Assembly: GCA_030583845.1 (NCBI GenBank) | Contig: CP129478.1 | Span: forward strand, 513,835-577,834 | From: Candidatus Dojkabacteria bacterium | Lineage (GTDB): Bacteria; Patescibacteriota; Dojkabacteria; SC72; JAHDCA01 | Length of the DNA: 64,000 bases | Direction: 5' to 3' | In this document: piece after piece, positions 35,841 through 57,313 of the stretch | Numbering within the stretch: position 1 is the first letter of the stretch | Layout of the letters: each line of letters opens with the position of its first letter | Notes under the pieces: generated by a model | What the model was told of the DNA's origin: nothing | The model's input: only the letters and a program-made list of their open reading frames with translations | Database searches by the model: none | Program-made: the position numbers and the translations under genes

Positions 35841-36131
35841 CTACGCTCCTCTGAATGGGTTTCTGACTTTTAACGCCAAATCCTCTTGCTTCTTCTGCTG
35901 GCTTTCTGTTGTGGCGTTTATAGTTGCCCCGCCGCTATATGGAGCGCCGATCTTTCTCTCAAAAGCCATGAGTTTATCGTAGTCGGATTGTTCTTTCGTT
36001 TGAGCAATGCTTTGGGTTGTGCCACCTGCCGTGGGTGTTGTGGCTTGGTTGTTTTGCGCAGCTGGTTGTGCGACTGGCTGGTCAGCTTGAGTCGTGCCTG
36101 GCTTGCTTTTGAAAATGTTGAAGATGCCCAA
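35841..36131 (-). CDS. hypothetical small Q/T/A-rich protein downstream of virB4-like gene
   Basis: 96 aa ORF, low complexity. Confidence 0.3.
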   Translation of the reverse strand: MGIFNIFKSKPGTTQADQPVAQPAAQNNQATTPTAGGTTQSIAQTKEQSDYDKLMAFERKIGAPYSGGATINATTESQQKKQEDLALKVRNPFRGA

Positions 36132-36148
36132 AGCTCTTTATGGCAAAT

Positions 36149-38638
36149 TTATTGGACTGGGTTGGTTGGCTCCTCGGGACTCCCAAAATCTGGAGATTCA
36201 TATCCTGGCTGGGCTGGCTGACTTGGTGGTGGAGTCGGAGCTGTTGATTCAACAGGAACCGTGCCTCCAACAATGCCCTGTGAAGTGATATGTGACCTAC
36301 CTTTTTGCAATGCATCTCTTTCCGCGCTTACCATGTCTGACATAGATGCGTATGTTTCGGCAATGCCATCACCATCCATATCCACCATGCCTTGAGTGTT
36401 TACATCCGATTGTGGTACAGCATGATACTTCAGCCTATCCTCAATCATCTGGTCAACCTGCTCCTTGCGGCTCTGGACTGCACGGCTGATTACATTTGTT
36501 TTGTCCCTGCGGACGCGATCTTTGATTGGATCTTGGACTGCTGGCGGGTCATACATCATCGCAAGCTCCTCGAGCGGGCGTTGTTTCTTAATGCCTTGTG
36601 CTTCTTCGGCACGCATTCTCTCGAGGTCTTTCGGATCGGAGGTAATAAGCTCATGCTCGGCTTGGCTGGATACCACCTGGATAGCCACATGGTTTGCTCC
36701 AGCGAAGAATAAGCCCTGACCCTTGTCGGCAGTTAATAGATACTGTTTCTCACCTTCTGATAAGTTGAAAGTGCCAGTGAGCCGGTCAATCGCAGCTGGG
36801 CTCTGCTTCATCAAGAATTGGATCGAAGAGTTAGTAATAATAGCGCGTCCCATATCATTCTTAAGGAAATCATCAACATCTTGAGTGATTGTCGTGAGTC
36901 CGAGGTAATATTTACGTGCTCGTTTCGCCATGCCGTACAAGAATTTGGCTGAGTCCTCATTTTGCATCATGTACCACGCCTCATCCACGATCAAGATCCG
37001 TCGCTTCATGTCACGTCGAATTCTGGTCCAGATATAGTCCAGCATCAGATACATAACCATCGGACGGAGCTCGTCGGCCATATCACGGATGCTAAATACT
37101 GTGAACGGATTATTAATTTCGACCGTGCTCCGTTCATTGAACACGCCCTTGGCTGAGCCGATGATATATCGTTCGAGGCGGCTTGCCATGCTTCGCGCTT
37201 CAGGCTCTGCCATGCCTTTCAATACCTTGTACAGGTCCTCAAGCAGAGGGTAATCGGCGTTTCGCTGGGTCGCAGGATCGAGTGTGATCCCTTTCTCGCG
37301 ATAGGTCAGGATTAAGGCACGATCCAAGATTGCAATTTCAATAGGGTTCAACTGTCCCATCATTAGCCTGAAGAAGCCCTGTAATGAGAGCATCTTAATC
37401 CTCAACTCATCTTCATCTTGCCCAAGTCCTGACAGCTCAAATGGATTCATCTTGTCGCCTTTATCTTGTGAGAATGAGATATATGCACCGCCAACAGCTT
37501 GGCACAGTCTCTCGTACTCTTTCTCAGGGTCGATAATTATCAATTCTGTCCCAAACATCAGGCTTCTCACCGCTTCCAGCTTCACGAAGTAGCTCTTACC
37601 AGCACCCGACCTGGCAAATACAACTGTATTTGCATTCTCCATATCGAATCGGTCAAAGATAACCAAGCTTCGGTTATGCTGGTTGATCCCATACATGATC
37701 CCATGATCCATGGTGAGCTCCGAGGTGACAAATGGGAATGTAGTAGCCAACGATGTCGTATCCATATTTCGGGTAATAAACATCTTGTCCAAGCCGAGCG
37801 GCTGTGTGCTGATCAGTCCTTGCTCCTGCTGGAGAACCGCTGGCTTTGCAGTCACATTCATCGAGGCTAAAGTCGATGTCACATTCTTGCCGATCTTTTC
37901 GAGCTCATCCTTGTCTTTTGATTGAATGGTGACATACATCCCGAAGTGGAAGAATTTCTCGGTGCCCTCTGCGATCGAGTCTTGAAGCTGCTGAGCGTCG
38001 GTTAGGGCTACTTTGAGCGTGGGATCGACGGCTTTGCGGCCTTCCATCTGCGAGTACAACGTTGCCTCCATCTCACCGATCTTGCGCTTTAACTTTTGCA
38101 AAATCACCTTCGAATCTACTGGGTAATAGAAAGTGCTGATATAGAGCGAATGCTCGAAGTTAATTATAGGCGAGAGCCAGTTCGGCCCGACAAAACGTGG
38201 ATAGCCCTGCGGGCTAACAAAATATGTCTGGAAGTACCAGTCGCCAATCTTCAGGTGGTTAAAATCTACCTCCATGTCGATTGGGGCGATAAGGTCTTCG
38301 ATTGTAAGCCCTTCGATTTTTCGCCCATCTACCGCTTGCTCTTCTGCGGCTATCTGTTCCTCATCATTCTTCGGCGCGTAGTTTTTACCGATAACGGGGA
38401 GATAGGCGAGGAAGTTTTGGAGTGGGCTACGTTTCTTGATTACTGTTGGGTCATATCGCTCTTTATCTTCGAGCTCTTTGGTTTTGAGGCGATCCTCTTT
38501 GACCTGTCGCTGGAAATCATTGATCTTCTTTCCTGGGTCGAGTGTCTCATTTCGCTTATCGATCATCTGCTGAGTCTTAGACTGGTGAGTCTTAGTGAAG
38601 CGGTTTGGATCTTTTTCAAATGGTTGTGTGGTGCTCAT
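36149..38638 (-). CDS. type IV secretion ATPase VirB4 family (Gram-positive TcpF/PrgJ/TrsE type)
   Basis: N-domain LKIGDWYFQTYFVSPQGYPRFVGPNWL...SLYISTFYYPVD; Walker A FARSGAGKSYF; IIIDPEKEY; Walker B ILIVDEAWYMM; 829 aa. Confidence 0.75.
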   Translation of the reverse strand: MSTTQPFEKDPNRFTKTHQSKTQQMIDKRNETLDPGKKINDFQRQVKEDRLKTKELEDKERYDPTVIKKRSPLQNFLAYLPVIGKNYAPKNDEEQIAAEEQAVDGRKIEGLTIEDLIAPIDMEVDFNHLKIGDWYFQTYFVSPQGYPRFVGPNWLSPIINFEHSLYISTFYYPVDSKVILQKLKRKIGEMEATLYSQMEGRKAVDPTLKVALTDAQQLQDSIAEGTEKFFHFGMYVTIQSKDKDELEKIGKNVTSTLASMNVTAKPAVLQQEQGLISTQPLGLDKMFITRNMDTTSLATTFPFVTSELTMDHGIMYGINQHNRSLVIFDRFDMENANTVVFARSGAGKSYFVKLEAVRSLMFGTELIIIDPEKEYERLCQAVGGAYISFSQDKGDKMNPFELSGLGQDEDELRIKMLSLQGFFRLMMGQLNPIEIAILDRALILTYREKGITLDPATQRNADYPLLEDLYKVLKGMAEPEARSMASRLERYIIGSAKGVFNERSTVEINNPFTVFSIRDMADELRPMVMYLMLDYIWTRIRRDMKRRILIVDEAWYMMQNEDSAKFLYGMAKRARKYYLGLTTITQDVDDFLKNDMGRAIITNSSIQFLMKQSPAAIDRLTGTFNLSEGEKQYLLTADKGQGLFFAGANHVAIQVVSSQAEHELITSDPKDLERMRAEEAQGIKKQRPLEELAMMYDPPAVQDPIKDRVRRDKTNVISRAVQSRKEQVDQMIEDRLKYHAVPQSDVNTQGMVDMDGDGIAETYASMSDMVSAERDALQKGRSHITSQGIVGGTVPVESTAPTPPPSQPAQPGYESPDFGSPEEPTNPVQ

Positions 38639-39261
38639 ACTTCTGGTGTGTATACTTCATAAAATAGCTGAATCAGCTCGTTATTTTCAAGCTGGTGCCC
38701 CATTAGTCCCATCCGGCCAAGCTGCTTAAGAATATGGTCGCGCTTCGGGTAGAGGTAGATTCGCCCCTGTTCAGCTACCTGTAATTTATGCTTTTCAGAC
38801 AATATGCTGTTTGCGGCAGCTTTCTGCTTTTTCAGCTTAGCTCCAGCCAGTGGGTTTGCTGGATTGTAGGGGACGACCAGGTAAAATTTCTTATCCAGCA
38901 CATCATTAGTGACGATTAGGTTCTGAACGAAAGAGGTGTAGACAGTGAGTTGGGTCCTTAAGCCTTCAGACATTGGGCGTGAGAGCTGCTGATTGAGGTA
39001 GTCGATATAGTTGGCAATATCGATTCGTTGGGTCTTGATCAAGATCTGAATATGGAAGTTGAGCGAATTTAGGAGACCAGCAAAGGCGTAGATCTTGCTG
39101 TCTTGCTCATACTCTGAAAGTAGGTCGAAGTTAACTGCGTTGGTCTGGATGACAAGTGATACACTGCCGCTTTTGGTGATTACTAAATCGTCAATTACAT
39201 CGAGTATCTCTAGGTGATCTTGTGTCGATGGTTTGATTTTGCTTCTAACTTTCGGGTCCAA
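38635..39261 (-). CDS. hypothetical protein resembling the CagE/TrbE/VirB4 N-terminal region (possible separate N-domain component)
   Basis: LVITKSGSVSLVIQTNAVNFDLLSEYEQDS...LLNSLNFHIQILIKTQR resembles the opening of PF03135-type VirB4 N-termini; ATGA overlap with virB4 start/stop suggests translational coupling. Confidence 0.4.
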   Translation of the reverse strand: MDPKVRSKIKPSTQDHLEILDVIDDLVITKSGSVSLVIQTNAVNFDLLSEYEQDSKIYAFAGLLNSLNFHIQILIKTQRIDIANYIDYLNQQLSRPMSEGLRTQLTVYTSFVQNLIVTNDVLDKKFYLVVPYNPANPLAGAKLKKQKAAANSILSEKHKLQVAEQGRIYLYPKRDHILKQLGRMGLMGHQLENNELIQLFYEVYTPEV

Positions 39262-39279: not shown

Positions 39280-40287
39280 CTAATTTAAAGGGGTCACTAA
39301 AATTGGTGGATATATACCTTGCTCAATTACATAGTGAAGTCTTGGGAAATTATACTGGCCGTACTCTATGTCTACAAGGTACTCACCTGGCTTAAGCGGC
39401 TTTGCATTTACTAGGTTGCCGGCTCCATCTGTCTGATACACCTGCAATATGTTTTCTGAGGTATCTCTAAGCATTACCATAGCGCGGTGAAGTGGCTGCG
39501 AGCTGTCCTGGAGGTGGAGGTAGATCGTGTTTGGGTGTAGCTCCAAGCCCTCAATACTGTACTGGAATTGGGAGATGTTCTCCTTGGTAATTGTTACACG
39601 AGGTCGAGCCGGGAGCGGTGTTACCTGGTGTACCATCTGTGGCTGCTCAACTGCGGGTTGCTCGGGCTGTGCTGGTGCGGTACTCTCAGGCACTGCTGTG
39701 CCTTCCTGTTGCATCGGTTGTGGCTGTGGCATACTGCTCTGCATGCTGACCTGTGTTGAAGCAATATTTTCAATCTCCGCCAGCCTCTGCTCCTCCTCCA
39801 TGTCGAGAGCCTGGGTCACCTGAGAGCTTTGCATGAATTGATTTGACCCCATCTCACTTGGATCAACTCCACCTATGATCTTACTCTTCTGGTTCTTGGA
39901 AGATGCTGGGAGTTCATTACGCGACATCTCGCCCTGTGTCATTACTAGTCCGCGCTGCTCAGCAATCCCTTCTACCTTCCGGTCAAACTGCTCATTGCGC
40001 CATACTCGCCTGGTTGGTCGAGTAATTGCTGCAATATAGTTGGTAAGGAATGTATCGGCTTTCTGCTCATTTATTGGCACCAATCCGAGGAATAGCCCTA
40101 TTGCTGAAGAGATCAAGAAGATTGGGACAGCAATGAAGTATGTGAGCTCTCCACGAGTGGCAAAGTAGAGAAAAATCCCACCAAAGCCTATCCCTGCGGC
40201 CATATAGATAAATTCACGAACTGTAAATTTCGTAAAAAGCTTAAACTCTACGTCCAATATATTTTGTGGTATCGGATGCTGCTTCAT
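39280..40287 (-). CDS. PrgI/VirB3-like T4SS membrane protein with extended Q/P-rich linker and C-terminal domain
   Basis: KLFTKFTVREFIYMAAGIGFGGIFLYF + second TM helix matches the PrgI-family N-terminus; heads the virB4 operon. Confidence 0.5.
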   Translation of the reverse strand: MKQHPIPQNILDVEFKLFTKFTVREFIYMAAGIGFGGIFLYFATRGELTYFIAVPIFLISSAIGLFLGLVPINEQKADTFLTNYIAAITRPTRRVWRNEQFDRKVEGIAEQRGLVMTQGEMSRNELPASSKNQKSKIIGGVDPSEMGSNQFMQSSQVTQALDMEEEQRLAEIENIASTQVSMQSSMPQPQPMQQEGTAVPESTAPAQPEQPAVEQPQMVHQVTPLPARPRVTITKENISQFQYSIEGLELHPNTIYLHLQDSSQPLHRAMVMLRDTSENILQVYQTDGAGNLVNAKPLKPGEYLVDIEYGQYNFPRLHYVIEQGIYPPILVTPLN

Positions 40288-40384: not shown

Positions 40385-41254
40385 TTGGGCATGAAATTAA
40401 GCGATAAAAGCAATAAAAGTATGGATGCAGATCGCGTCGAGGCAGTAATCAAAATGATTGCTTTTCGAAAGCAGATGGAGAAGAGGCTCGACAGCTCAAT
40501 TGCAAAACGCTATTGGGGTAACGATATCGTTGAGTTGCTTGAGAATCTTGGTGGTAAGGAGCTAGTCAATAAGTGGATAGCGGATAGCGACGCGATCTTT
40601 GAGTCGCGTCGCGCGGAGCAGCTGAGGTATGCAGAAAGAATTATTAAAGAGAAGTGGTATTTGCGATACGGAGTACTGTTTGTAGGAGTATCGGGATCGC
40701 TTGCAGCAGGCACTTATAAAGAAGAGGATGATATCGATCTGTTTGTGGTTACCAAGGATTACACTGCCTGGATCTATCGTGGGCTCGTGAAGCTATTTGG
40801 AAAAGGGATCGTTCGCTATTTTAATGAAGATGAAAATTCAGGCAAATTATGCATTAACTTCGTATGCGAGGAGAGAGGGACTACTTTTGATGAAGATATA
40901 TTTACATTGCACGAGCTGCTACACCTACAGCCGGTATATAATAAGGAGTACCATCTGAAGCTACTTAGTAGTAATCCTTGGGTGGCTACTAAGTTTCAGG
41001 TGTCGATGCCCGCAAGTCTGGAGAGTGCCCGCACCAGATCATCAAACTTTATTAAAATTGCAAACAGTGCCGCACGAAAACTTCAGATCTTATACATGCG
41101 ACGCACCAGTCATGCTCCAGATACCACACGCATAAATGAGAGTTATCGCAGGGGCAGGATCGAGTTTTATCCCTCCCAATTTCATGAAATGGTAATGAAG
41201 CAGTACGAGCAGGCATATAGCGAAATAAAGGGAGAATTTAAGAAGCATACTTGA
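40385..41254 (+). CDS. Pol-beta-superfamily nucleotidyltransferase-domain protein
   Basis: GVSGSLAAGTYKEEDDIDLFVV fits hG[GS]x9-13Dh[DE]h. Confidence 0.5.
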   Translation: MGMKLSDKSNKSMDADRVEAVIKMIAFRKQMEKRLDSSIAKRYWGNDIVELLENLGGKELVNKWIADSDAIFESRRAEQLRYAERIIKEKWYLRYGVLFVGVSGSLAAGTYKEEDDIDLFVVTKDYTAWIYRGLVKLFGKGIVRYFNEDENSGKLCINFVCEERGTTFDEDIFTLHELLHLQPVYNKEYHLKLLSSNPWVATKFQVSMPASLESARTRSSNFIKIANSAARKLQILYMRRTSHAPDTTRINESYRRGRIEFYPSQFHEMVMKQYEQAYSEIKGEFKKHT

Positions 41255-41279: not shown

Positions 41280-44200
41280 GTGTCCATGCAGTTCAATCTG
41301 AACGAACGACAACAAGAAGCAGTACAGCATAAAGCAGGACCACTGCTTATAATCGCTGGCGCTGGTACAGGAAAGACCGCAGTCATCACTAGGCGTATTA
41401 CTCATATTATTAATGAGGGCTGGGCTAAGCCATCTGAAATATTGGCCCTAACATTCACCGAGAAAGCTGCAGGAGAGATGCTCGAAAGGGTTGATCAAGA
41501 AATGCCAATCGGCCACGAAGAGATAGCCATCTCGACATTTCACTCTTTCTGCGATCGGATCTTGAGGCAGGAGGGGATATATATCGGTCTCGATACAAAT
41601 TATAAGCTGATGAGCCAGGCTCAATCATATATCCTGTTTAAGAAAAATCTGTTCACCATGTCGCTCGATAAATTCAGGCCGCTGGGCAACCCCACCTCAC
41701 ACATCGACGATATCCTGAAGCACTTCTCGCGATTGCAAGATGAAGATGTCTTCCCAGAGGAGTATATAAAGTTTGCCGAAAAGTTGCCCTCAACAACTGA
41801 AGAGGAGGAAGAGCTAAAGGCGGAGGCAGTTGAGCTAGCCAAAGTGTATAAAGAATACTCAGATATCAAGGTACGTGAGTCGATGCTCGACTTCGGAGAT
41901 CTGATACTGCTCACCCTGAGACTCTTCCGTGAGAAGCCGAATGTCCTAAAGAAATACCACGACCTCTACAAATATATCCTTGTAGACGAGTATCAGGATA
42001 CCAACTATACCCAAAATGTGCTCGTGAACACGATCGCATTTGGCGGCGACCAGAAGAATAAAACCGTAAAACAGAAACAGCCGAATGTCACTGTTGTAGG
42101 AGACGATGACCAGGCTATCTACAAGTTCCGAGGTGCTGCTATCTCAAACATCTTGCAATTCAATAAGACATATAAAGGTGTGAAGAAAGTGGTACTAGTC
42201 GAAAACTACCGATCTCGACAGGAGATACTCAACGCCGCCTACGACCTGATTCAGAAAAATAACCCCGACCGTTTGGAGATATCTGAGTCGATAGATAAAC
42301 GACTTGCGGCTCGAGCCGAATTTGAGGTACCAGAGGTCGATCCTGTGCAGCTAATTGTGGCAGACAGTGGTGCAGTTGAGGCCGACAGCGTAGCGAAAGA
42401 GATCCTGAATCTAACAGGCAACAAGGAGCTGCTTAAAAATGACAACTCGATCGTAAGCAGGAAGTTTGACTCGAAAGGGCAGAGCATGTTTGTGGATGTG
42501 GAGAAAGAGAATGGGGCAGAATTTAGATTCTCAGATATTGCACTGCTTGTTCGGGCAAATAATAACTCGGATGAATTTATCCAGGCATTCAAATATTACG
42601 GAATTCCGTTCAAGTTCTCTGGTCCAAAAGGGCTCTACTCACGGCCAGAGATCTCGAAGCTGATCTCTTTCTTGAGGCTGGTTGTTGATTACAAAGATGA
42701 TAGAAACATGTTCAACATCTTGAAGATGCAATCATTGGATCTGGATTCGCGCGATGTGGTGGAGCTTATGCGCCTTGCCAAAGAGCAGCGCCTATCTATA
42801 TTTGAGGAGATAGAGGCTATAACCGGTACTCGAATCGGCGATGTGGAGAGTGAAGAGATCGAGATCGCGGAAAATCGACGCAATCTGATTGAGAAGACCT
42901 TTAGCACTGATGCTATCGACTCAATGAAGGCTTTGGTCACACTTTTTGACAGCGCTTTTAAAGCAGTCAAAGAGGGACGAAGCATTGGCGAGATATTGTA
43001 CGATTTTGTGAAGAGTAGCGGCTACCTGGACTCAATGACGGAGGTCGAATCGTATGAGAATCAGTTCAAAATTCAGAATATGACAAAATTTTTCGACCTG
43101 ATCAAAAGTTATGAGCGCGACAATAATGACGCTTCTATCTACGACTATGTCGATTATCTGAACTATAGCATTGAGATAGGTGAGAGCCCTCGGGTGGATG
43201 AGGATATGCTTGAGGATTTTGACGCTGTGAAGATTATGACTGTCCACGGATCAAAGGGCTTGGAATTTCCTGTAGTATTTCTGACAAACCTGGTGTCAGA
43301 CCGATTCCCGACGCGGCGACGAAGCGACACAATTCCTATCGCAGAAGAGCTGGTTAAAGAGCAGTTTAGTGACGAGGATGAGCGGATAGCACACCTGAAG
43401 GAAGAGCGCAGGCTCTTCTATGTTGGCGCTACTCGTGCCAAAGAGCGCCTCTACCTGACCGCGGCGAAAGTATACGGCGATGCGAAAACCAAGCGGAAGC
43501 CAAGTCTATTCCTCGACGAGCTACTTGGCAGGAAGGTCTCGCTCGATTTTGCCGAAGATGGAGCAAATGTTCGCAAGGAGCCTGAATTTAAAGTTCAGAT
43601 CTCAACCTACGATGACTCGCTCGATGTGAAGGGACTCAACATCAGTGCGCCCTTAAACCTGAGCTACTCGCAGATAAAGACTTATGATGATTGTGGGAAA
43701 AAATATAAGTATCAGTATATTATCCGGCTTCCATCCAAACCGAGCTCGACGCTTTCATTTGGAAATACAGTGCATGCGGTGCTTAAGTCTTTCTATGAAC
43801 AGCAGAGGGCTGCTCTGTCCGGGCTTGAGGGCTTTGTCCAAACCCCGACAGTGGATGATCTGATCGATAGCTATCATGATAAATGGATATCCACAGGGTA
43901 TGATAGCCGAGAGCATGAGAAAATCCGCAAGGAGTATGGGGAAAGAAAATTGCGCGAGTTTTATGAAAACTTCTACTCGGTCAAGGAAAATCCGATTGAG
44001 CTGGAGAAGTCTTTTCACTACAAGATCGGGGGGGTTGGGATGACAGGAAAGATCGATAGGATTGACCTGGTAGGGAAAGAAGATGGTCGCGAGGTTGTAG
44101 ATCTGTTGGATTACAAAACTGGCAAGAAGAAGGAGCTGAGGGATGTGAAAAACGATTTGCAGCTGGCATTGTACACGATTGTGTGTGAGGAGGTGTTTAA

Positions 44201-44408
44201 TATGAAGGTACGGAAGGCGGGGTTACTCTTTGTCGAGCACTGTGAGAGAGTAGATATTGAGGTCGATGAAAAAATGCGACAGAAGTGCAAAGAGAAGATC
44301 CATGAAGTAGTTGAGCTGATAAGAAAAGAGGATTTTGCCGCGAAACCGAGCAAATTTACCTGTGGATTTTGTGATTTCCGTGATATCTGCTCGGATGCGG
44401 TAATCTAG
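41280..44408 (+). CDS. UvrD/PcrA-family helicase fused to C-terminal Cas4/AddB-like PD-(D/E)xK nuclease with Cys cluster (AddA/AdnB-like)
   Basis: Walker A AGAGTGKT, helicase motifs through VHGSKGLEFP and VGATRAKERL; nuclease module with DDCGKKYKYQY ... DLLDYKTGKK ... CGFCDFRDIC. Confidence 0.8.
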   Translation: MSMQFNLNERQQEAVQHKAGPLLIIAGAGTGKTAVITRRITHIINEGWAKPSEILALTFTEKAAGEMLERVDQEMPIGHEEIAISTFHSFCDRILRQEGIYIGLDTNYKLMSQAQSYILFKKNLFTMSLDKFRPLGNPTSHIDDILKHFSRLQDEDVFPEEYIKFAEKLPSTTEEEEELKAEAVELAKVYKEYSDIKVRESMLDFGDLILLTLRLFREKPNVLKKYHDLYKYILVDEYQDTNYTQNVLVNTIAFGGDQKNKTVKQKQPNVTVVGDDDQAIYKFRGAAISNILQFNKTYKGVKKVVLVENYRSRQEILNAAYDLIQKNNPDRLEISESIDKRLAARAEFEVPEVDPVQLIVADSGAVEADSVAKEILNLTGNKELLKNDNSIVSRKFDSKGQSMFVDVEKENGAEFRFSDIALLVRANNNSDEFIQAFKYYGIPFKFSGPKGLYSRPEISKLISFLRLVVDYKDDRNMFNILKMQSLDLDSRDVVELMRLAKEQRLSIFEEIEAITGTRIGDVESEEIEIAENRRNLIEKTFSTDAIDSMKALVTLFDSAFKAVKEGRSIGEILYDFVKSSGYLDSMTEVESYENQFKIQNMTKFFDLIKSYERDNNDASIYDYVDYLNYSIEIGESPRVDEDMLEDFDAVKIMTVHGSKGLEFPVVFLTNLVSDRFPTRRRSDTIPIAEELVKEQFSDEDERIAHLKEERRLFYVGATRAKERLYLTAAKVYGDAKTKRKPSLFLDELLGRKVSLDFAEDGANVRKEPEFKVQISTYDDSLDVKGLNISAPLNLSYSQIKTYDDCGKKYKYQYIIRLPSKPSSTLSFGNTVHAVLKSFYEQQRAALSGLEGFVQTPTVDDLIDSYHDKWISTGYDSREHEKIRKEYGERKLREFYENFYSVKENPIELEKSFHYKIGGVGMTGKIDRIDLVGKEDGREVVDLLDYKTGKKKELRDVKNDLQLALYTIVCEEVFNMKVRKAGLLFVEHCERVDIEVDEKMRQKCKEKIHEVVELIRKEDFAAKPSKFTCGFCDFRDICSDAVI

Positions 44409-44911: not shown

Positions 44912-44930
44912 ATTTAGCGCTTTCAAAAAG

Positions 44931-49735: not shown

Positions 49736-49892
49736 TTCGTAAGTTGTCGTGATGTGGCGACCTTTTCATTCCTGATAGAGTGATATCTTGTCCGATTACC
49801 TTTGTAGAAAATATTTCTATGGGCTTCGCAATGACGCCGCGAAGTGATATAATTAGCCATATAGCTTTCCAAATTAACAACATATCTGAGGG

Positions 49893-50519
49893 GTGATGCA
49901 AGTTCAGATACCAGACAAGTTCAAAATCAATCGCAAATCGTTTGTAACCAAGATTACGCAGGCAAATTCTAGGTCTGCGATTAGCAATTTCTGCGCTTTC
50001 CCGAAGAATGTGAGCTTCACAGGCAAGGAGATCGACGAGTGTGTTGTGCTTCTTGTGCGTCGAAGCCTCGTCTCATATTGGCCACAATATCTTCTGATCT
50101 TCTTTTTTATTATCGCTCCGATGATATTTGGTGTGCTTCTGAGTGCATGGGATAATGAAAATACCGCCGCAATTGGCTTGGCCGCGACCATACTTTTCTG
50201 GTTGTTAGCATTCACAACTGCAGTTGATACATTCTTGAAATGGTTCTACTCGGTAAATATTATTACCGACCAACGCGTCATCGATGTCGACTTTAATAAT
50301 GTGCTTTATCATAGATACTCTGAAGCTCAGCTTGAGAATATCCAGGATGTGACTCACTCGGTCGCAGGATTACTTGGCTCAATCTTCGATTATGGAGATG
50401 TATATATCCAGACTGCAGGTACCAACCCAGAGTTTGTATTTGAGATGGTTCCAAAGCCAAGAATTGTACAGGATACGTTGCAGGACTTACTTGAAATGAA
50501 GCAGGAGGGCACACTTTAA
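49893..50519 (+). CDS. membrane protein with bacterial PH (bPH_2/YdbT-like) domain
   Basis: Two TM helices followed by ...IITDQRVIDVDFN...DYGDVYIQTAG pattern typical of bPH_2. Confidence 0.45.
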   Translation: MMQVQIPDKFKINRKSFVTKITQANSRSAISNFCAFPKNVSFTGKEIDECVVLLVRRSLVSYWPQYLLIFFFIIAPMIFGVLLSAWDNENTAAIGLAATILFWLLAFTTAVDTFLKWFYSVNIITDQRVIDVDFNNVLYHRYSEAQLENIQDVTHSVAGLLGSIFDYGDVYIQTAGTNPEFVFEMVPKPRIVQDTLQDLLEMKQEGTL

Positions 50520-50770
50520 TGGATTATGTTGGCCAGCTAAACCAAACAGGTGTAGAAGTGCTCAGTCTAAACTTTGCATTTCAATGCCTCTTCTTCGTAC
50601 TTATTGTCGGATACCTTTTTTATGCCTTCATGCTCACGGTTCGTGTGAGAATACTTTCAGAAACGATTAAAGCGCCCTATAACAATCTTGCTGTCACCAT
50701 AAGCTATATCCACCTGCTTGTAGCATTAATTGGTGGATTCCTTGCATTGTTGGTGATTCTTCTTGCATAA
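50519..50770 (+). CDS. small membrane protein
   Basis: 83 aa, two hydrophobic helices; ATGG overlaps with flanking genes. Confidence 0.35.
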   Translation: MDYVGQLNQTGVEVLSLNFAFQCLFFVLIVGYLFYAFMLTVRVRILSETIKAPYNNLAVTISYIHLLVALIGGFLALLVILLA

Positions 50771-53435
50771 TAGAGGCATGAAAATTCATCTTAAAGATTT
50801 TCTGGTCGATAGTCCCGACAGATCCTCGGTAACCAAGATCTTCCGCTCAGACCTCTCGGGTGATATTAGAGGTCACCTGGTAATACTGCTATCGATTAAG
50901 GCAAAAGGAAAAGTTGATGTAAACCAGATCGCGCCATTTATTATCAATGGTGTTGGTCTTGGTGCCAAAGCAGCAAAATCTCCGATCGAGTGTCTAAAAT
51001 TGGGTCTAGAGCAGGGTGAACGACAGCTGCGTGACCTTATTCGCCACGATGGAGAGGCAGAGCTAGGCCTTGATGTGAATCTCTCAATGGTGCTGCTCCA
51101 AGAAGGCAAAGCCTATATTGGTATGCTTGGCTCTCATGAGATCCGCCTATACCACGATGAAAATCTGGTAGATGTCACAGAAATCTTAGAAACCAACAAT
51201 GTCCAAACTTGTAGCCTAGTGATTAAGGATGAAGATTATTTCGTACTTTCATCTTCACGAGCCTTCTTTGACCAGCTGAGCTCTGCTACATCAGGGAGTG
51301 CCAAAGAGCTTTTCAACGATATTTCAAACACGCAGAGTGTTCTTGAGCAAGGTGAAGGACTACTTCTACTCTCGACAGGTGTAGATTTTGAGAAGTTTGC
51401 AGAGGAATATGCCGCGCCATTTGCGGCTGATCGTGACGACCAGCTTGTTGCACCTCACAATTCAGCGCTTTTTGATGTAGTGCTGACTGAGGATGAGCTA
51501 AATGTTAGCGATATTAAGGAAGAAGTTGAAGAGGAGCTAGAGGAAAAGTTGGAAGAAAAAGAGGTTGAGACAAACTCCTTCTTGGATAGTCATGCAGATG
51601 AGCCAGAGGTAGGGGCAGCCCAAACTAGGGCGTCCCGGACCTGGGACGCCCCAGAAGCTGAGCCGGCTCCCAGAGCGACTTCTCGAGATGTTTTAGAAAC
51701 TGAAACCGAAAAATATGTAGAGGAGGTCGATGAGGATCAGCCAGCAAAAGTGCAAGAAGTGCCTGTAAAGTCCAGCTCATATACAGAAAAAATGCGAGAT
51801 ACGTTCAAACCGCTGAGCGTTACGCCAACACCACCCGCAAGTGTGCCCCCTGCCATCTCGACCTCGGCCGCTCCACAAGATATCAAGAAGTTCAAAGATA
51901 TCCGTAAGCCACTGCGTGAATTTAAGTCAGGCGTAGATGTAGAAGACCTGAAAGGGAAATTCCGCACAGTTTCCAACAAGACTCAGCAAAAATTAAGTCC
52001 GGTAGTCAATAAAGTGGGTACAAACCTCTCTAGGAAGTATGACACAGTTTCTACTCGGGTTACCAATAGGCTCTCGACAAAATATGGTCGAAGTCCATGG
52101 TTTAAACGAATCATGGCAAAATTAAGCCAGGCTCGAGTAAGCAGCGGTAAGGCACCGGGACTAAGACTTGGTGAGTACAGAGAGAGGGCAAATCGAAGGA
52201 GCAAATTCACCAAGATTGCACTGGCGTTTGTTATTGTTGCGCTAATCTTTAGCGGATGGAGAATTACCCAGAATTGGAAATATAAGTCAGAAGTCCACAG
52301 CAAATTTGTGAGCTATCTGTCAGCTGTTGAGGGTAGCCTAAGTGAGGCCGAAGCAAAGGTGAATAGTAGCCCGGAAGAAGCCATCCTAGCACTGTTTAAT
52401 GCACAAAAGAAGATTGACCAGATACCTGTAAGCCTAGATGACCTGTCAGAAGATGATCGTGAGGCATATAGCGACCTTCAAGGACGTGTACTGGGAATCT
52501 CCGACCAGGTAAATAAGGTGACGGTACTTTCTGAAGATTCTGGCAACATAAGTCTATTTGCAGATGGCAGGATTGATTTCGACTCAAAGTCTGCACCAAC
52601 TGACATTGCCATTTTTAGAAACTCTGAGCTGGTAGAGCAGCTATTGATTACCGACAGAGGTACAAGCTCGGTCTACCGAATCCCGACCGTTGGAGGTGAT
52701 GTGAAGAAAATTCTTGACACAAACGGTGTTGTTAAAACCCCGATGTATATCGATGTAGGAACCAATGGTATATATATTTTTGACGAGACAGCAGGTGTAT
52801 TGAGAGCTGCGTTTGGTGACTCAGATAGTGAGATCACCACATTCACGACGCTGACTGGGGCAGGCCGAGATCAATTTGAAGGTGCAAGTGTAGATGAGTT
52901 TGCCGTATTTACCGCCGCAGACAATCTTTACGTCTTGAGCAAGAGTGCAAACTCTATTTTCAAGTCTCAACGAGCGTCCAGCGGTTCTTACGGATTGCCA
53001 TTTGTGTATTATGAAAATGCTGTTTTGTCCAGCGGTGAAGATCTTTTTGCTGACTTCAATATCTATGTGATCACAGGCGGGGCTACAGGGCTAAATCGTT
53101 ATACATTTGATAGCAGGCGGGGAGCATTGACGGAGTTCCCAGTGGAAGTTGCTGAGCTACGCGGATCATTTGAAAATCTAACCGCCGGATACACAGGGGC
53201 TGATCTGACCAAAGAGCTATATCTATTTGACAATGCAACCAAGAGGATAATAATCTTGGCGAAGCCTAGTGAGGGTGATAATGCAAATGCTAGCGTGATG
53301 GTGATGCAGAAACAGTTTGAGTATAGAGGGGACAATGATGAAATGTTTGAGAATGTCTCAGATATAGTTGTGGATGATGCAGAGCAGTTCATGTATGTCC
53401 TTGATGGGACTAAAGTGTGGAAGATCACCCTGTGA
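50763..53435 (+). CDS. large bitopic membrane protein (cytoplasmic about 470 aa, acidic/low-complexity linker, one TM at about residue 480, extracytoplasmic about 400 aa), function unknown
   Basis: TM FTKIALAFVIVALIFSGW; carries an in-frame copy of a palindromic repeat in its acidic linker. Confidence 0.5.
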   Translation: MHNRGMKIHLKDFLVDSPDRSSVTKIFRSDLSGDIRGHLVILLSIKAKGKVDVNQIAPFIINGVGLGAKAAKSPIECLKLGLEQGERQLRDLIRHDGEAELGLDVNLSMVLLQEGKAYIGMLGSHEIRLYHDENLVDVTEILETNNVQTCSLVIKDEDYFVLSSSRAFFDQLSSATSGSAKELFNDISNTQSVLEQGEGLLLLSTGVDFEKFAEEYAAPFAADRDDQLVAPHNSALFDVVLTEDELNVSDIKEEVEEELEEKLEEKEVETNSFLDSHADEPEVGAAQTRASRTWDAPEAEPAPRATSRDVLETETEKYVEEVDEDQPAKVQEVPVKSSSYTEKMRDTFKPLSVTPTPPASVPPAISTSAAPQDIKKFKDIRKPLREFKSGVDVEDLKGKFRTVSNKTQQKLSPVVNKVGTNLSRKYDTVSTRVTNRLSTKYGRSPWFKRIMAKLSQARVSSGKAPGLRLGEYRERANRRSKFTKIALAFVIVALIFSGWRITQNWKYKSEVHSKFVSYLSAVEGSLSEAEAKVNSSPEEAILALFNAQKKIDQIPVSLDDLSEDDREAYSDLQGRVLGISDQVNKVTVLSEDSGNISLFADGRIDFDSKSAPTDIAIFRNSELVEQLLITDRGTSSVYRIPTVGGDVKKILDTNGVVKTPMYIDVGTNGIYIFDETAGVLRAAFGDSDSEITTFTTLTGAGRDQFEGASVDEFAVFTAADNLYVLSKSANSIFKSQRASSGSYGLPFVYYENAVLSSGEDLFADFNIYVITGGATGLNRYTFDSRRGALTEFPVEVAELRGSFENLTAGYTGADLTKELYLFDNATKRIIILAKPSEGDNANASVMVMQKQFEYRGDNDEMFENVSDIVVDDAEQFMYVLDGTKVWKITL
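51628..51652. repeat. GGGCGTCCCGG-N-CTGGGACGCCCC palindromic repeat copy inside the CDS 50763-53435 (translated in frame as AQTRASRTWDAP)
   Basis: Same hairpin module as 937-961 and 23611-23635; sits in an acidic linker. Confidence 0.5.
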
Positions 53436-53890
53436 GCATAAAAATTATCTCAAAAAACAAGCGGGCATATTTCGATTATGAGATCTTAGAGGAATTTGAA
53501 GCTGGAATTGCACTTGCTGGTGCTGAGGTCAAGTCTGTAAAGAATTCCCAAGTTAATCTAGCCGATTCTTTTGTACGGTTTGAAGGCGACCAGGCTTATC
53601 TCTGGAACGCAAATATCGCCATGTATAAGCATGCATACGATCCCTCTTACGATCCATTAAGGAGTCGTAAGCTATTATTAAAGAAAGGGGAGATAGATAT
53701 GCTTCAGAGCAAGGTTAAGCAGGCTCGCCTTACTGTTGTACCGCTAAAGGTATACTTAAGTAGAGGGCTAGTCAAATTATCTATCGGGCTGGTGCGGGGC
53801 AAGAAACAGTATGAGAAGAAACTAAAAATTAAGGAGCGTGACCTTGATCGTGAGCTACATAGAGAAAAAAGGGTTCACATGGTAAAATAG
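53417..53890 (+). CDS. smpB: SsrA-binding protein SmpB
   Basis: KNKRAYFDYEILEEFEAGIALAGAEVKS..., RSRKLLLKKGEI, VVPLKVYLSRGLVKLSIGLVRGKKQYEKK. Confidence 0.85.
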   Translation: MEDHPVSIKIISKNKRAYFDYEILEEFEAGIALAGAEVKSVKNSQVNLADSFVRFEGDQAYLWNANIAMYKHAYDPSYDPLRSRKLLLKKGEIDMLQSKVKQARLTVVPLKVYLSRGLVKLSIGLVRGKKQYEKKLKIKERDLDRELHREKRVHMVK

Positions 53891-53917
53891 CCGACGTATA
53901 GTGACAGCAAAAGAGAT

Positions 53918-54601
53918 ATGACGCCTAACAATCAAACAAATAATGTTAGCCAGCAGGAACGGGAGCTACTGATCCAGCAGGAAATCCCTAGGTATCTTCA
54001 GCGCATGCTTTCTGTAGACCAGTGGGAAAGATTTACACTAGAGCAGAAAGATCTATTGCGCCAATCCGAAAATGGCCTTCCCAAAAATCTAAACGGCATA
54101 GTACCAGATAGCATCTGGGGCACACTCCAGCCCGAGCAGAAGCTCGAATTCCTCTTCTCGCACAATCTTCTACCACGCTTTGAGATGACCGCTGACCCGA
54201 TGGAGGCCGTCTCACACGGTTTCGATGGAGCTATGCAAGGCACTGAGACAATGAGTGTCGAGATGGCAGAAGAAGCAGAGTCACAGGCGGTAGAGGTACC
54301 GTTACAGCAAGAATCGAAGGAGCAGTTCACCCAGGCGGTAGAGAGGATGAATCAGGTAGAGGAGCAATATAGCACTGATGTGGAGCCACAGCTCCCACCA
54401 GAAGATGTCAGACACCTGGATAATGAAAGAGGCAGGAATCTCCTCCTTTCATCACCCACGATAGTTGGCCACCGCCCATCCGACGATCTTCTTGCCAACT
54501 ATAAGAAGTATGCAGATGGTAACACCACACAGAGCAAGACCTGGATCTCCACAATGATCCAGAAGTTTGTTGACTCAATCGGTCTGGAAAGAGTCGAATA
54601 A
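53918..54601 (+). CDS. hypothetical acidic/Q-rich protein
   Basis: 227 aa ORF. Confidence 0.4.
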   Translation: MTPNNQTNNVSQQERELLIQQEIPRYLQRMLSVDQWERFTLEQKDLLRQSENGLPKNLNGIVPDSIWGTLQPEQKLEFLFSHNLLPRFEMTADPMEAVSHGFDGAMQGTETMSVEMAEEAESQAVEVPLQQESKEQFTQAVERMNQVEEQYSTDVEPQLPPEDVRHLDNERGRNLLLSSPTIVGHRPSDDLLANYKKYADGNTTQSKTWISTMIQKFVDSIGLERVE

Positions 54602-54712
54602 GCAGCAAAATGTCGCTTTGAGACCTCGCTTTCCGATAGTTCATATGCTATCCTGATTTAGTATTTAAAAAGCTTTCGGATAGATGTTTGGCAATTCACA
54701 AACATCGTAGGG

Positions 54713-57313
54713 ATGCTTTTAACTAGAGAAATGTTTATGTTGACTGTCCCACAAAATTCTCAATCGAATCTAGAGATCTACGCCTTTGATAATGATGGCG
54801 GCGTTTTGTCGCAGGTTGTCGGGCCATCTCCATCGAGTGAGGATGTTGAGAATAATGTCGACACGGTTTATCCGGATGATAGCTTTGCCCAAGAAAGCAA
54901 TGGAGCCGCTATCTTCACCTGGGTGCTGCTGGTGGTTTTCCTCCTGTTGCTTATCGGATCTGCGGCTGGACTGCTCTACCTTTACATGAACCAGCTGAAG
55001 CGAAAAGACCGCGAGCATAAGACGAAAGAGGGTGTACTGTTCGAGGTGAAAGTGCCACGAGGCAATGAAACTGAGGTAGGTGTGGCCGAATCGATGTTTG
55101 CAAACCTTTATGGAATAGGCGGAGTTGGCGACGGCATTAAGAAATATATGACAGTGAGCAACAGCATCAGCTTTGAGATTGTAGGATTACCAGGAGAAAT
55201 CCGCTTCTTCGTTTATGCGCCGAAGAAATTCGCTGACCTCGTTGAGAAGCAGATACTCGGCTCCTATCAGGATGCTGAGATTACAGTTATCGATGAGCAC
55301 AATATCTTCCACGACGATGCACAGGTTGCTTACGCACAGCTGGACATCACAGATGAGCGGTACTATCCGATAAAAGTTGCTGAAGATTTTAAAGGCGATC
55401 CAATTGCAAATATCCTCTCAACCATCAGCAAGATGGGCGACAAAGAGGGCGCAATGATACAGATTGTGATCTCTCCTGCAGGATCTAGCTGGCAGAAATC
55501 AGGACGCAAATTTGTATCCAGCGTTGAAAGCAACAATGCCGATCCCGAGAAGAAACGAATGAACGTCAGCCAGGAGCAGCTCCAGGCCATTTCAAAGAAG
55601 ACCAGCAAGATCGGCTTTAACACCGCTATTCGTATCGTCGCCAGCTCGCCAAATGTCGAGATCGCAAAAATGCACGTCAACAACATTATTGGTGCATTCG
55701 ACCAGTTCTCAAACCCTGGCATCAACAACCTAAAGAAAACCAAGATTCGCACCGGCGATGAGAAAGAGTTTATGCACAACGTAATCTATCGACGCATGCC
55801 GCTAAAGACCAAGACAGTCTTAAATATCGAAGAGCTCGCCTCAATCTACCACTACCCGAATCAGGAGGTGACCACTCCAAACATTAACTGGCTGCTCGCC
55901 AAAGAGGCTCCCGCCGCCAACTGGGTCAATTCAGATATCCAAGGCCGCGACACGATCTGGATAGGTAACAACTATTTCCGAGGGAATGTTCAGCCGATCT
56001 GTATGGCTCGTGAGGATCGAATGCGACACAGTTATGTAGTTGGACAGACAGGCTCGGGTAAGTCGTGGTTCCAGCTGCGCATGATTATGCAGGATATCTA
56101 TAATGGTGACGGTGTATGTGTAATGGATCCGCACGGCTCTTTGGCCGAAATGGTGCTAGAGAGGATTCCACATGAGCGAGCCGAAGATGTTATCTATTTC
56201 AATGTAGCCGACTTTGAGAGGCCACTAGGCTTCAACCTGATGGATTTCCAGAACGAGCAGGATAAGCACCGCGTGGTAAACGGATTTATCGGATTGCTAA
56301 AGAAGCTTTTCGACCCAAATGAGCAGGGTATTGTCGGTCCAATCCTCGAGCGTGCCGTCCGAAACGCTATGCTCACCGCAATGTCCGAAAAAGGCTCTAC
56401 GCTAGTTGAAGTTGTACGTATCCTGACCGACGAGAAATGGGTAAAGGAGAAGTGGCTCCCAATAATCCAGGACGACCTTGTAAAGCGATACTGGACCGAC
56501 CAGATAGCCAAGACTACCGAGCAGCAGAAATCAGAGACGCTCGGCTATATCGTCTCGAAATTTGACCGCTTCGTCACAAACTTGGCAATCCGCAACATCA
56601 TCGGCCAGTCCGAGTCATCATTTAATGTGCGTCAGGTAATGGACGAAGGTAAAATCCTTGTAATCAACCTCTCGAAAGGCTTGATCGGTGAGGAAAATGC
56701 ACAGTTCTTGGGTATGCTGGTGGTACCGAAGATTATGTCTGCTGCTTTGAGCCGTGAAGATCTGCCTGAAGATCAGAGGCGCGACTTCTTCTTCCACGTC
56801 GACGAGTTCCAGAACTTCGCAACAGAAGAGTTCGCAGGAATTCTCTCAGAGGCTCGTAAATATCGACTCTCGCTAAATGTCGCAAACCAGTATATCTCGC
56901 AGATGCCAGAGAAGGTGCGTGATGCTGTCTTCGGTAACGTCGGCTCAATGTTTATCGGCCGCGTTGGCGCTGAAGATGCAGAGTTCCTCCAGAAGCAGTT
57001 TGAGCCAACTTTAACCTCCAACGACCTGCTCAACCAGCCAAATATGCATTACTATGCCAAGATGCTCACGGATGGTAAGTATTCACCTCCATTCTCGCTC
57101 GACCCGAAGTATGGTCCGAAATTCCCAGAATCTGGCTTCAATCTACCGGTAAATCAAGATGTCGCGGAGCTTATCAAGAAGCTATCCCGATTGAAGTATG
57201 GCCGCGACGTAAACATTGTGGAGTCGGAGATGAATCAGCGAGCCGATCTTGCCGTAAACCCTGGTGCTCAATCGGACAATATGTCGGCGCCACCGCCGTT
57301 GTCGTTTAAGTAG
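54713..57313 (+). CDS. T4SS coupling-protein-like ATPase (VirD4/TraG/TraD family)
   Basis: N-terminal TM; Walker A VGQTGSGKSW; VMDPHGS; FFFHVDEFQNF; C-terminal ...ARKYRLSLNVANQYISQ... resembling TraG-D_C. Confidence 0.6.
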   Translation: MLLTREMFMLTVPQNSQSNLEIYAFDNDGGVLSQVVGPSPSSEDVENNVDTVYPDDSFAQESNGAAIFTWVLLVVFLLLLIGSAAGLLYLYMNQLKRKDREHKTKEGVLFEVKVPRGNETEVGVAESMFANLYGIGGVGDGIKKYMTVSNSISFEIVGLPGEIRFFVYAPKKFADLVEKQILGSYQDAEITVIDEHNIFHDDAQVAYAQLDITDERYYPIKVAEDFKGDPIANILSTISKMGDKEGAMIQIVISPAGSSWQKSGRKFVSSVESNNADPEKKRMNVSQEQLQAISKKTSKIGFNTAIRIVASSPNVEIAKMHVNNIIGAFDQFSNPGINNLKKTKIRTGDEKEFMHNVIYRRMPLKTKTVLNIEELASIYHYPNQEVTTPNINWLLAKEAPAANWVNSDIQGRDTIWIGNNYFRGNVQPICMAREDRMRHSYVVGQTGSGKSWFQLRMIMQDIYNGDGVCVMDPHGSLAEMVLERIPHERAEDVIYFNVADFERPLGFNLMDFQNEQDKHRVVNGFIGLLKKLFDPNEQGIVGPILERAVRNAMLTAMSEKGSTLVEVVRILTDEKWVKEKWLPIIQDDLVKRYWTDQIAKTTEQQKSETLGYIVSKFDRFVTNLAIRNIIGQSESSFNVRQVMDEGKILVINLSKGLIGEENAQFLGMLVVPKIMSAALSREDLPEDQRRDFFFHVDEFQNFATEEFAGILSEARKYRLSLNVANQYISQMPEKVRDAVFGNVGSMFIGRVGAEDAEFLQKQFEPTLTSNDLLNQPNMHYYAKMLTDGKYSPPFSLDPKYGPKFPESGFNLPVNQDVAELIKKLSRLKYGRDVNIVESEMNQRADLAVNPGAQSDNMSAPPPLSFK

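Follow-up and report, generated by a model that had tools for sequence, protein, structure and literature searches.

A probable chromosomal type IV secretion system of the Patescibacteria type, composed of two gene modules, in Candidatus Dojkabacteria

Type IV secretion systems (T4SSs) of Patescibacteria are multiprotein machines whose genes were found here in a 64-kb stretch of DNA (the window) from a metagenome-assembled genome of Candidatus Dojkabacteria (WS6). The region studied, positions 35841-57313, contains a VirB4 ATPase operon on the minus strand and, on the plus strand, a tandem array of VirB2-like pilins and a VirD4-type ATPase resembling type IV coupling proteins (T4CPs), with a set of envelope protein genes between the last two (Table 1). 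Housekeeping genes lie among them (M23 peptidase, nucleotidyltransferase (NTase), UvrD/PD-(D/E)XK helicase-nuclease, smpB, holA, LCP, YceG and alaS), and base composition is uniform along the window. About 65 open reading frames (ORFs) of the window were scanned with Pfam, and family calls were judged against Pfam gathering or NCBIfam cutoffs. With the SpoIID-type protein of the region as query and one genome per species, 75 loci were collected, nearly all of them from Dojkabacteria, and the window proteins were compared with these loci by tblastn; a separate scan with VirB4 as query, together with look-ups, gave 18 related VirB4 loci (individual loci are designated L002, L069 and so on). All ORFs named in the original prediction, an earlier reading of this DNA, were found again at the same coordinates, and its interspersed housekeeping genes (smpB, helicase, M23 peptidase) were confirmed by Pfam.

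Table 1. Features of the region studied, followed by other features of the window. TM, transmembrane; bits are given with the family cutoff.
Feature	Position	Strand	Family matches and remarks
M23 peptidase	35139-35801
Small NPFRG protein, 96 residues, Q-rich	35841-36131	-	last gene of the VirB4 operon
VirB4 ATPase	36149-38638	-	NF045971, 379 bits (cutoff 325); PF19044 (P-loop_TraG), 1.6e-27
TrsD-like protein	38635-39261	-	NF041427 TrsD/TraD, 7.5e-8
PrgI/VirB3-like membrane protein	39280-40287	-	PF12666, 37.6 bits (cutoff 27); first gene of the operon
Nucleotidyltransferase (NTase)	40385-41254	+	Pfam; divergent from PrgI; not a T4SS part
UvrD-helicase/PD-(D/E)XK nuclease fusion	41280-44408	+	Pfam; syntenic neighbour, not a T4SS part
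VirB2/TrbC-like pilin pil1	44525-44911	+	PF18895 T4SS_pilin
VirB2/TrbC-like pilin pil2	44931-45266	+	PF18895 T4SS_pilin
VirB2/TrbC-like pilin pil3	45359-45724	+	PF18895 T4SS_pilin
VirB2/TrbC-like pilin pil4	45861-46139	+	PF18895 T4SS_pilin
VirB2/TrbC-like pilin pil5	46136-46456	+	PF18895 T4SS_pilin
Variable slot with two predicted surface proteins	46488-47839	+	between pilin array and SpoIID; coh1 46488-47147, coh2 47186-47839
Membrane-anchored coiled-coil and SpoIID/LytB-type protein (SpoIID-CC)	47855-49735	+	PF08486, 50 bits (cutoff 23); TIGR02669, 91 (cutoff 83)
Bacterial PH-domain (bPH) protein, 208 residues	49893-50519	+	2 TM helices; syntenic
DUF5657 protein	50519-50770	+	45 bits (cutoff 25); 2 TM helices; syntenic
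p890, bitopic membrane protein of 885-890 residues	50763-53435	+	QY318_02580
smpB	53417-53890		inside the pilin-T4CP block
Acidic protein, 227 residues	53918-54601	+	between smpB and the T4CP-like gene
Divergent VirD4-type, T4CP-like ATPase	54713-57313	+	one N-terminal TM helix, DUF8128 domain, P-loop domain
Perfect 25-bp inverted repeat	57310-57334 and 57414-57438		79 nt between the arms (32 nt at 91%)
Inverted repeat	958-1077		intergenic; 50-nt arms, 72% complementarity, strong hairpin
tmRNA	5663-6094		47 kb from smpB
Cohesin and dockerin protein	22709-23581	-	Cohesin 47 bits, Dockerin_1 23.5 bits; N-terminal anchor
Inverted repeat	23595-23648		intergenic; 26-nt arms, 96%, 2-nt loop
nfo	23740-24612
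ECF-type sigma factor, then alpha-2-macroglobulin-like protein	24717-30881	+	the latter in two overlapping ORFs, 25379-29893 and 29757-30881
Lon-like AAA+ ATPase	33557-35092	+	Lon lid, no protease domain, long Pro/Val-rich N-terminal region

The first module consists of four head-to-tail genes on the minus strand, encoding the PrgI-type protein, the TrsD-like protein, VirB4 and the small NPFRG protein. VirB4 scores above the cutoff of NF045971, the NCBIfam model named 'VirB4-like conjugal transfer ATPase, CD1110 family', and matches the VirB4 structure of T. pseudethanolicus (PDB 4AG5) at 3.1e-49. Its Walker A (GAGKS) and Walker B (DEAW) motifs are intact, and its C-terminal tail is long and of low complexity. 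The protein is 100% identical to one annotated as Candidatus Dojkabacteria, and the next 120 clusters, at 60-86% identity, belong to Dojkabacteria/WS6. Judged by its sequence, its best family is the monoderm CD1110/MPF_FATA type; of the 'TcpF/PrgJ-type VirB4' first proposed, VirB4 is retained and the TcpF label is imprecise, since TcpF itself matches only at E = 0.0018. The PrgI-like and VirB4-N-like ORFs noticed upstream in the operon were both recognised by their families (Table 1). The first has two N-terminal TM helices (26-44 and 52-70), joined by a Q/P-rich linker to a beta-rich domain at the C-terminus. The second also matches positions 103-236 of the full-length VirB4 model VirB4_plasma, and its orthologues in relatives carry PF26593 (TraC-like), so that by sequence it is a free-standing piece homologous to the VirB4 N-terminal domain. 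Its stop codon and the VirB4 start overlap by 4 bp, and it is 61% identical in the WS6 relative L002.

The last gene of the operon encodes a small, disordered protein conserved across Dojkabacteria, which matched no Pfam family. The ORF is considered real because positional orthologues in three relatives (L002:12354-12662, L079:12381-12665 and L080:12346-12612) share an invariant C-terminal NPFRG. The adjacency of PrgI, TrsD and VirB4 was found in 17 of the 18 related loci. The module is usually accompanied downstream by the small ORF and by a Lon-like AAA+ gene, and upstream by the divergent NTase, which adjoins PrgI in at least nine loci. The Lon-like gene of the window lies just downstream of VirB4 on the opposite strand, as it does in 15/18 related loci.

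The five tandem ORFs predicted to encode VirB2/TrbC-like pilins all pass the PF18895 T4SS_pilin cutoff (33-47 bits, cutoff 26.6), with TrbC matches remaining sub-threshold; the profile search, which could have placed them in an unrelated family, thus returned a T4SS pilin family instead. Each protein is a hairpin of two hydrophobic helices, the VirB2/TrbC topology. A clear signal-peptide-like leader is present in pil1, pil3 and pil5, and pil4, perhaps also pil2, is without an obvious long leader. The paralogues are 23-27% identical to the first one, and arrays at the same position in relatives hold 4-8 copies with a mode of 5 (33/47 loci). In about 45 loci, the gene immediately preceding the pilins is that of the UvrD/nuclease.

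The ATPase at the other end of the plus-strand block has a TM helix at residues 70-88 and invariant Walker A (GSGKS) and Walker B (DEFQ) motifs. Canonical VirD4 has two TM helices, whereas the present protein has one, plus an extra domain: its orthologues carry the precomputed match PF26449 (DUF8128, about residues 100-420, about 320 residues), together with weak or faint precomputed matches to PF10412, PF02534 and PF12696. In the AlphaFold2 model an all-helical insertion is found at about 515-645, and the protein superposes on TrwB and Cagβ over 363-397 residues. The VirB4 C-terminal domain (29.3) and the DptH ATPase domain (27.7) superpose equally well, and FtsK and TcpA are lower (17). The N-terminal membrane anchor, the nucleotide-binding domain with its Walker motifs and the all-alpha insertion together make up the architecture of a T4CP. 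At the sequence level, the NCBIfam TraD and CD1115 'VirD4-like' models match at about 5e-12, and a profile of 23 orthologues compared with the PDB gave DotL (1.5e-6) and TrwB (1.3e-3), with HerA at 0.13. The orthologues are 57-68% identical in the 23-sequence alignment, the best tblastn segments per locus being 53-67% identical, and by this measure the ATPase is the most conserved protein of the plus-strand block. We thus describe it as a T4CP-like ATPase of a divergent VirD4 type, whose N-domain is specific to the lineage, and not as a certified family member. A literature search for DUF8128 and DUF5657 found nothing.

The block that ends with this ATPase (41280-57313, plus strand) has a fixed order: UvrD/nuclease, 4-8 pilins, SpoIID-CC, bPH, DUF5657, p890, smpB, a small protein and the T4CP-like gene. 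This order was found in essentially every sufficiently long locus, about 45 of the 75, at 25-67% identity, and none of these loci contains VirB4, TrsD or PrgI. In most Dojkabacteria, LCP and holA head the VirB4 region and are separated by about eight genes from the minus-strand NTase, after which come PrgI, TrsD and VirB4; the pilin block is flanked by nfo before UvrD and by xerC, divIC and efp after the T4CP. The WS6 reference assembly has the two modules on separate contigs. In the window, L079 and L080, whose VirB4 proteins are 71-86% identical, the whole UvrD-to-T4CP block sits exactly between NTase and holA, and nfo in the window has been left behind 16.7 kb away. The 21-kb cluster is thus a derived juxtaposition of two older modules, in which the pilin-T4CP block moved as one piece; it is because of this insertion between NTase and holA that the T4SS genes of this subclade look like a single cluster. 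Clustering of the flanks ruled out the idea that synteny ends at UvrD and at the T4CP, as nfo and xerC-divIC-efp are conserved too, and collinearity alone was then dropped as proof of functional linkage.

Between the pilins and the T4CP-like gene, the coiled-coil SpoIID hydrolase of the original prediction was borne out by two families, both above their cutoffs (Table 1). Its coiled coil matches 8i6o_E at 9.6e-6, among the EnvC-type regulators of division hydrolases. The HRNGMSQWGA motif is invariant, and both E364 and the longer THRNGMSQWGA are at least 95% conserved (46 sequences). The SpoIID segments are permuted, HRNGMSQWGA (residues 293-303) preceding residues 325-449, which align to the N-terminal part of C. 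difficile SpoIID; because of this permuted order, the equivalence of E364 to the catalytic E101 of the C. difficile protein is uncertain. SpoIID-CC may be a cell-wall-opening enzyme, and is a putative part of the T4SS only. No SLT or CHAP hydrolase (VirB1-type) was found in the region, where only SpoIID-CC and the M23 peptidase are present. For the bPH protein, the bPH_2 match is weak in the window (E = 0.0033) but is obtained for 26/31 orthologues.

The large p890 protein is predicted to begin with a cytoplasmic PP2C-like N-domain, which a long disordered stretch connects to a TM helix at 485-503; the predicted extracellular part is all-beta and resembles a propeller. The topology is similar to that of PstP. 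Three usable homologues were available for its model, which has a pLDDT of 40 and of which the N-domain result alone is usable; with this low-confidence domain model (pLDDT 65-78), all top 50 Foldseek matches are PP2C phosphatases (best E 1.6e-6). Pfam PP2C_2 was found in 3/48 orthologues and PP2C in 2/48. No Asp of the N-domain is invariant among the orthologues, and this domain is therefore probably a PP2C-like pseudo-phosphatase, catalytically dead. A p890 profile gave no match in the PDB, and the family has few members (189 representatives among 1.84 billion proteins). Next to it, smpB keeps its position within the block across Dojkabacteria, even in Shapirobacteria-like loci; the tmRNA gene lies elsewhere in the window (Table 1). 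The slot of the 227-residue acidic protein holds a gene of about 190 residues in relatives, with a positional equivalent in L078; detectable similarity was seen only in L014 and L077, and the protein matched no Pfam or NCBIfam family.

The gene repertoire, the properties of the pilin array, the lack of a relaxase and the chromosomal setting are those of the already published T4SSs of Patescibacteria. A survey of these systems described 2-11 pilin copies per array, about 25% identical, the lack of a relaxase, and T4CPs that are seldom close to virB4 (Quiñonero-Coronel et al. 2025, PMC12102498); Dojkabacteria are within its dataset but are not discussed there. Epibiotic growth of 'Ca. Southlakia epibionticum' ML1 requires its T4SS (SEML1_0006-0019), including the pilin array (Wang et al. 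2023, PMC10633639; review PMC12857230). As in these systems, the present locus has an MPF_FATA-like VirB4 with adjacent TrsD and PrgI/VirB3, divergent VirB2-like tandem pilins (here five, at about 25% identity), no relaxase, a chromosomal and vertically inherited setting, and a T4CP homologue outside the virB4 operon. It differs from Southlakia, whose locus is reported to have VirB6 and peptidase/lysozyme genes by virB4, in having no recognisable VirB6 or VirB1. Unlike the usually unlinked T4CPs of the survey, its T4CP-like gene lies about 7 kb from the pilin array in about 45 species, and SpoIID-CC, bPH, DUF5657 and the PP2C-like protein stand between the two, a further difference from the Patescibacteria and Southlakia systems.

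The conjugative MPF_FATA machineries share with the locus a VirB4 above the CD1110 cutoff and a weakly CD1115-like VirD4-type ATPase (C. difficile CTn2 CD1110/CD1115), as well as a PrgI-type VirB3, a pGO1-type TrsD and the lack of outer-membrane core genes (E. faecalis pCF10 Prg/Pcf; S. aureus pGO1 Trs). The locus departs from them in being chromosomal and immobile, and in having, within the window, no relaxase, oriT, PrgH/VirB6, PrgL/VirB8, VirB1-type SLT/CHAP hydrolase or PrgB-type adhesin; it also has pilins, whereas Gram-positive systems lack VirB2-like pilins. The Rickettsiales rvh and Anaplasma/Bartonella T4SSs are likewise chromosomal islands among housekeeping genes with tandem divergent VirB2 paralogues, and they serve host interaction, not conjugation, the same role being proposed here; however, they are diderm MPF_T systems with VirB6-11 and an outer-membrane core, of unrelated lineage and envelope. 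H. pylori ComB and Sulfolobales Ced also combine a VirB4-family ATPase with a relaxase-less, chromosomal setting, and weak CedB/CedD matches were seen; unlike them, the locus has no CedA or ComB-type channel genes, and the Ced matches are far below cutoffs.

Thus we consider it likely, with good confidence, that the locus is a chromosomal T4SS of the Patescibacteria type, derived from monoderm MPF_FATA conjugation machinery and made of two gene modules. In keeping with the original prediction of a chromosomal, non-conjugative T4SS of a small-genome episymbiont, no relaxase (MOB) or integrase family was matched in the ORFs scanned, synteny is class-wide, the genes being 35-86% identical at the amino-acid level and keeping fixed positions relative to housekeeping genes in dozens of Dojkabacteria species, and the picture agrees with PMC12102498 and PMC10633639. 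We infer pilus formation, substrate and transport direction by analogy, as follows. A membrane-anchored VirB3/TrsD/VirB4 motor would extract the pilins from the membrane and polymerise the VirB2-like subunits into a pilus or conduit across the monoderm wall, as VirB3/VirB4-driven pilin extraction and pilus biogenesis are described in characterised T4SSs (PMC12857230, PMC12624023). The SpoIID-type enzyme may help to open the peptidoglycan wall, and the T4CP-like ATPase may feed, dock or receive substrates. Since no relaxase was found, the system would most likely serve epibiotic host-cell interaction (macromolecule exchange or uptake, or effector delivery) rather than conjugation.

Several observations weigh against this interpretation. 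No VirB6-like polytopic protein or VirB8-like protein was found in the block or the window, and therefore a complete channel cannot be assembled from the visible genes. No protein with at least five TM helices is encoded in 33-61 kb, and polytopic proteins in the window are limited to an AI-2E transporter and one DUF308 protein. The T4CP-like protein is below the Pfam cutoffs of TrwB_AAD_bind (19.8, cutoff 20.5) and TraG-D_C (20, cutoff 22), and far below the NCBIfam cutoffs of CD1115 (45 bits, cutoff 250) and SXT_TraD (45 bits, cutoff 366); the VirD4/TraG-like assignment first made for this gene is supported by profile and fold matches but fails at the T4CP family cutoffs. The housekeeping flanks (nfo, xerC, divIC, efp) are as syntenic as the block and smpB lies inside it, so that collinearity is weak evidence of function. 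Locus L069, outside Dojkabacteria, keeps SpoIID, bPH, a p890-like gene and smpB without pilins or T4CP, and the SpoIID-to-smpB genes may therefore be hitchhikers. We know of no cultured Dojkabacteria, and host dependence and function are extrapolated from Saccharimonadia. Finally, the Southlakia T4CP homologue is not essential (PMC12102498). Equivalents of VirB6 and VirB8 were also not found in Microgenomatia and Gracilibacteria (PMC12102498).

If the whole 44.5-57.3 kb plus-strand run were one dedicated T4SS operon, the intervening proteins would be new lineage-specific structural or regulatory subunits, with SpoIID-CC replacing VirB1 and the others standing in for the missing VirB6 and VirB8. 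The genes are indeed tightly packed and co-oriented, in the same pilin-to-T4CP order in about 45 species, relocation to the VirB4 module in this subclade involved the block as a whole, VirB6, VirB8 and VirB1 are not recognisable, and in L073 (Shapirobacteria) two pilins lie next to SpoIID, with no T4CP. However, an unrelated housekeeping gene, smpB, is inside the run, nfo, xerC, divIC and efp are just as syntenic, and L069 keeps the SpoIID-bPH-p890-like-smpB segment without pilins and T4CP. Moreover, the coiled-coil architecture of SpoIID-CC is EnvC/PcsB-like, as is typical for hydrolases of cell division, the p890 topology is that of PstP-type membrane phosphatases, and none of the intervening proteins has at least five TM helices like VirB6. 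We regard a single dedicated operon as rather unlikely: SpoIID-CC, bPH, DUF5657, the PP2C-like protein and the 227-residue protein are machine parts by inference only, and may be neighbours of the T4SS genes rather than parts of it. For the full component list proposed originally, the identities of the pilins and of SpoIID stand, whereas membership is not established, given L069, the syntenic flanks and the weak cohesin and sortase calls.

The T4CP-like gene itself could be read otherwise, as an FtsK/HerA-superfamily translocase exapted, for example, for chromosome or division functions, which would not be a working coupling protein and whose proximity to the pilins would be coincidental. The failed T4CP cutoffs would fit, as would DUF87/HerA being the best, and for the window protein the only, passing Pfam match; xerC and divIC come next in most Dojkabacteria, the window gene abuts a switch of gene orientation and GC skew, and exaptation was suggested for patescibacterial T4CPs, most of which are away from virB4 and of which Southlakia's is non-essential (PMC12102498). 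Against this, the profiles quoted above favour T4CPs over HerA, and in about 45 species the ATPase gene is kept at most about 7 kb from the pilin array, with which it also moved. We regard an exapted translocase as quite unlikely. Membership of the two ATPases in FtsK/HerA, which was to be considered from the outset, thus receives a mixed answer: VirB4 is a clear T4SS protein, and the T4CP-like protein passes DUF87/HerA only while its profiles favour T4CPs.

A third reading would make the T4SS a nucleic-acid importer, in which the pilus taps the host, the DUF8128-T4CP-like ATPase moves DNA or RNA into the cell, and the imported material is processed for nucleotide salvage by the neighbouring UvrD/PD-(D/E)XK helicase-nuclease together with nfo. 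In its favour, the UvrD-nuclease is always the first gene of the pilin-T4CP block, with nfo before it in most species, and VirB4 and the T4CP-like protein weakly match the CedB and CedD models (7.9e-17 and 1e-5). In addition, Patescibacteria are without nucleotide synthesis, a parasitic member of the Patescibacteria was reported in a 2026 preprint to feed on the RNA of its host, its tubular structures being suggested as T4SS pili, and ABY1 T4SS loci adjoin competence and recombination genes. We nevertheless hold import to be distinctly improbable. The Ced matches, far below cutoffs, reflect a shared ATPase fold; genes of UvrD/AddA-like enzymes belong to the ordinary repair repertoire, and their adjacency may be plain synteny; the block contains no ComEC or other import-channel gene; and no experiment is known to link a patescibacterial T4SS with nucleic-acid import. 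A bolder form of this reading is a self-contained, VirB4-driven 'feeding-tube' importer running from UvrD to the T4CP, with SpoIID-CC, bPH, DUF5657 and the PP2C-like/propeller protein replacing VirB1, VirB6 and VirB8. If true, it would mean a T4SS importer sustaining a nucleotide-auxotrophic epibiont, with the intervening proteins as unrecognised envelope-spanning subunits; we judge it highly improbable.

A DNA-transferring integrative conjugative element, or the remnant of one, was rejected and is barely conceivable: VirB4 above a conjugal-transfer ATPase cutoff, a T4CP-like gene and a perfect 25-bp inverted repeat at one end would suit it, but no relaxase, integrase, replication or partition genes were found in the window, its base composition is uniform, conservation of its genes is vertical and class-wide, in synteny with housekeeping genes, and Patescibacteria in general were also concluded to be non-conjugative in this respect (PMC12102498).

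With a Patescibacteria-type T4SS as the preferred reading, four points appear to be absent from the literature on these systems: the class-wide linkage of a DUF8128-T4CP to the pilin array, the fixed gene set between pilins and T4CP, the two-module history with a merger in one subclade, and the conserved NPFRG protein after VirB4. They are incremental and leave the current picture of patescibacterial T4SSs unchanged. To our knowledge, these T4SSs are the only ones known to be essential to their carrier, and the only monoderm ones with VirB2-type pilins. The locus provides a well-resolved Dojkabacteria example of such systems. It ties a coupling-type ATPase, with its uncharacterised DUF8128, genetically to the pilin array and not to virB4, and the block from pilins to T4CP behaves like a unit that can be moved, having been brought beside the VirB4 operon in one subclade. 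The fixed set of envelope proteins between pilins and T4CP offers concrete candidates for further work.

The slot between the last pilin and SpoIID varies in length among relatives, and the two surface proteins predicted there in the window were not found in the 75 species loci. The first, coh1, which carries an anchor at its N-terminus, is limited to this close subclade, with orthologues of 28-30% identity in L079 and L080; the second, coh2, has a signal peptide followed by LPETA, a TM helix and a tail, and is unique to the window genome. Positional equivalents in relatives matched no Pfam family. The description of both as cohesin-like has weak support at best, as the Cohesin match of coh2 is sub-threshold (15.9 bits, cutoff 24.1, E = 0.016), coh1 has none, and neither BLASTP against the window's cohesin-dockerin protein nor Pfam at E <= 10 gave a convincing match. 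Sortase anchoring is likewise weakly supported, since the LPETA, TM and tail arrangement is in coh2 only, and no sortase gene was found in the window ORFs scanned. A bona fide cohesin and dockerin protein is encoded elsewhere in the window (Table 1), with no significant sequence similarity to the two slot ORFs.

The 25-bp inverted repeat extends across the spacer that separates the T4CP-like gene from the convergent holA and includes both stop codons, with an RNA fold of -56.6 kcal/mol (z = -8.4). It marks the right-hand junction of the relocated block, where the synteny breakpoint and the orientation switch fall, and could be a bidirectional terminator or a rearrangement scar. As a repeated element it was discarded, being unique in the window and without exact copy in metagenome contigs. 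A promoter and terminator scan gave counts equal to the shuffled expectation and was uninformative. In the T4SS region, the minus-strand VirB4 operon (35.8-40.3 kb) is followed by plus-strand genes between 40.4 and 57.3 kb and then by minus-strand genes past 57.4 kb; cumulative GC skew climbs to about 57 kb and then drops, the pattern expected at a replication terminus, and in relatives xerC comes after the T4CP-like gene. This terminus-like pattern differs from what has been suggested in the literature, namely a clustering of patescibacterial T4SS genes close to the origin. Of the two other intergenic inverted repeats listed in Table 1, the one with 26-nt arms is just upstream of nfo. Further downstream, an ECF-type sigma factor gene precedes that of a very large bacterial alpha-2-macroglobulin-like protein, which is split into two overlapping ORFs, the second with the bMG10 domain; the split may be due to a frameshift or a sequencing error.

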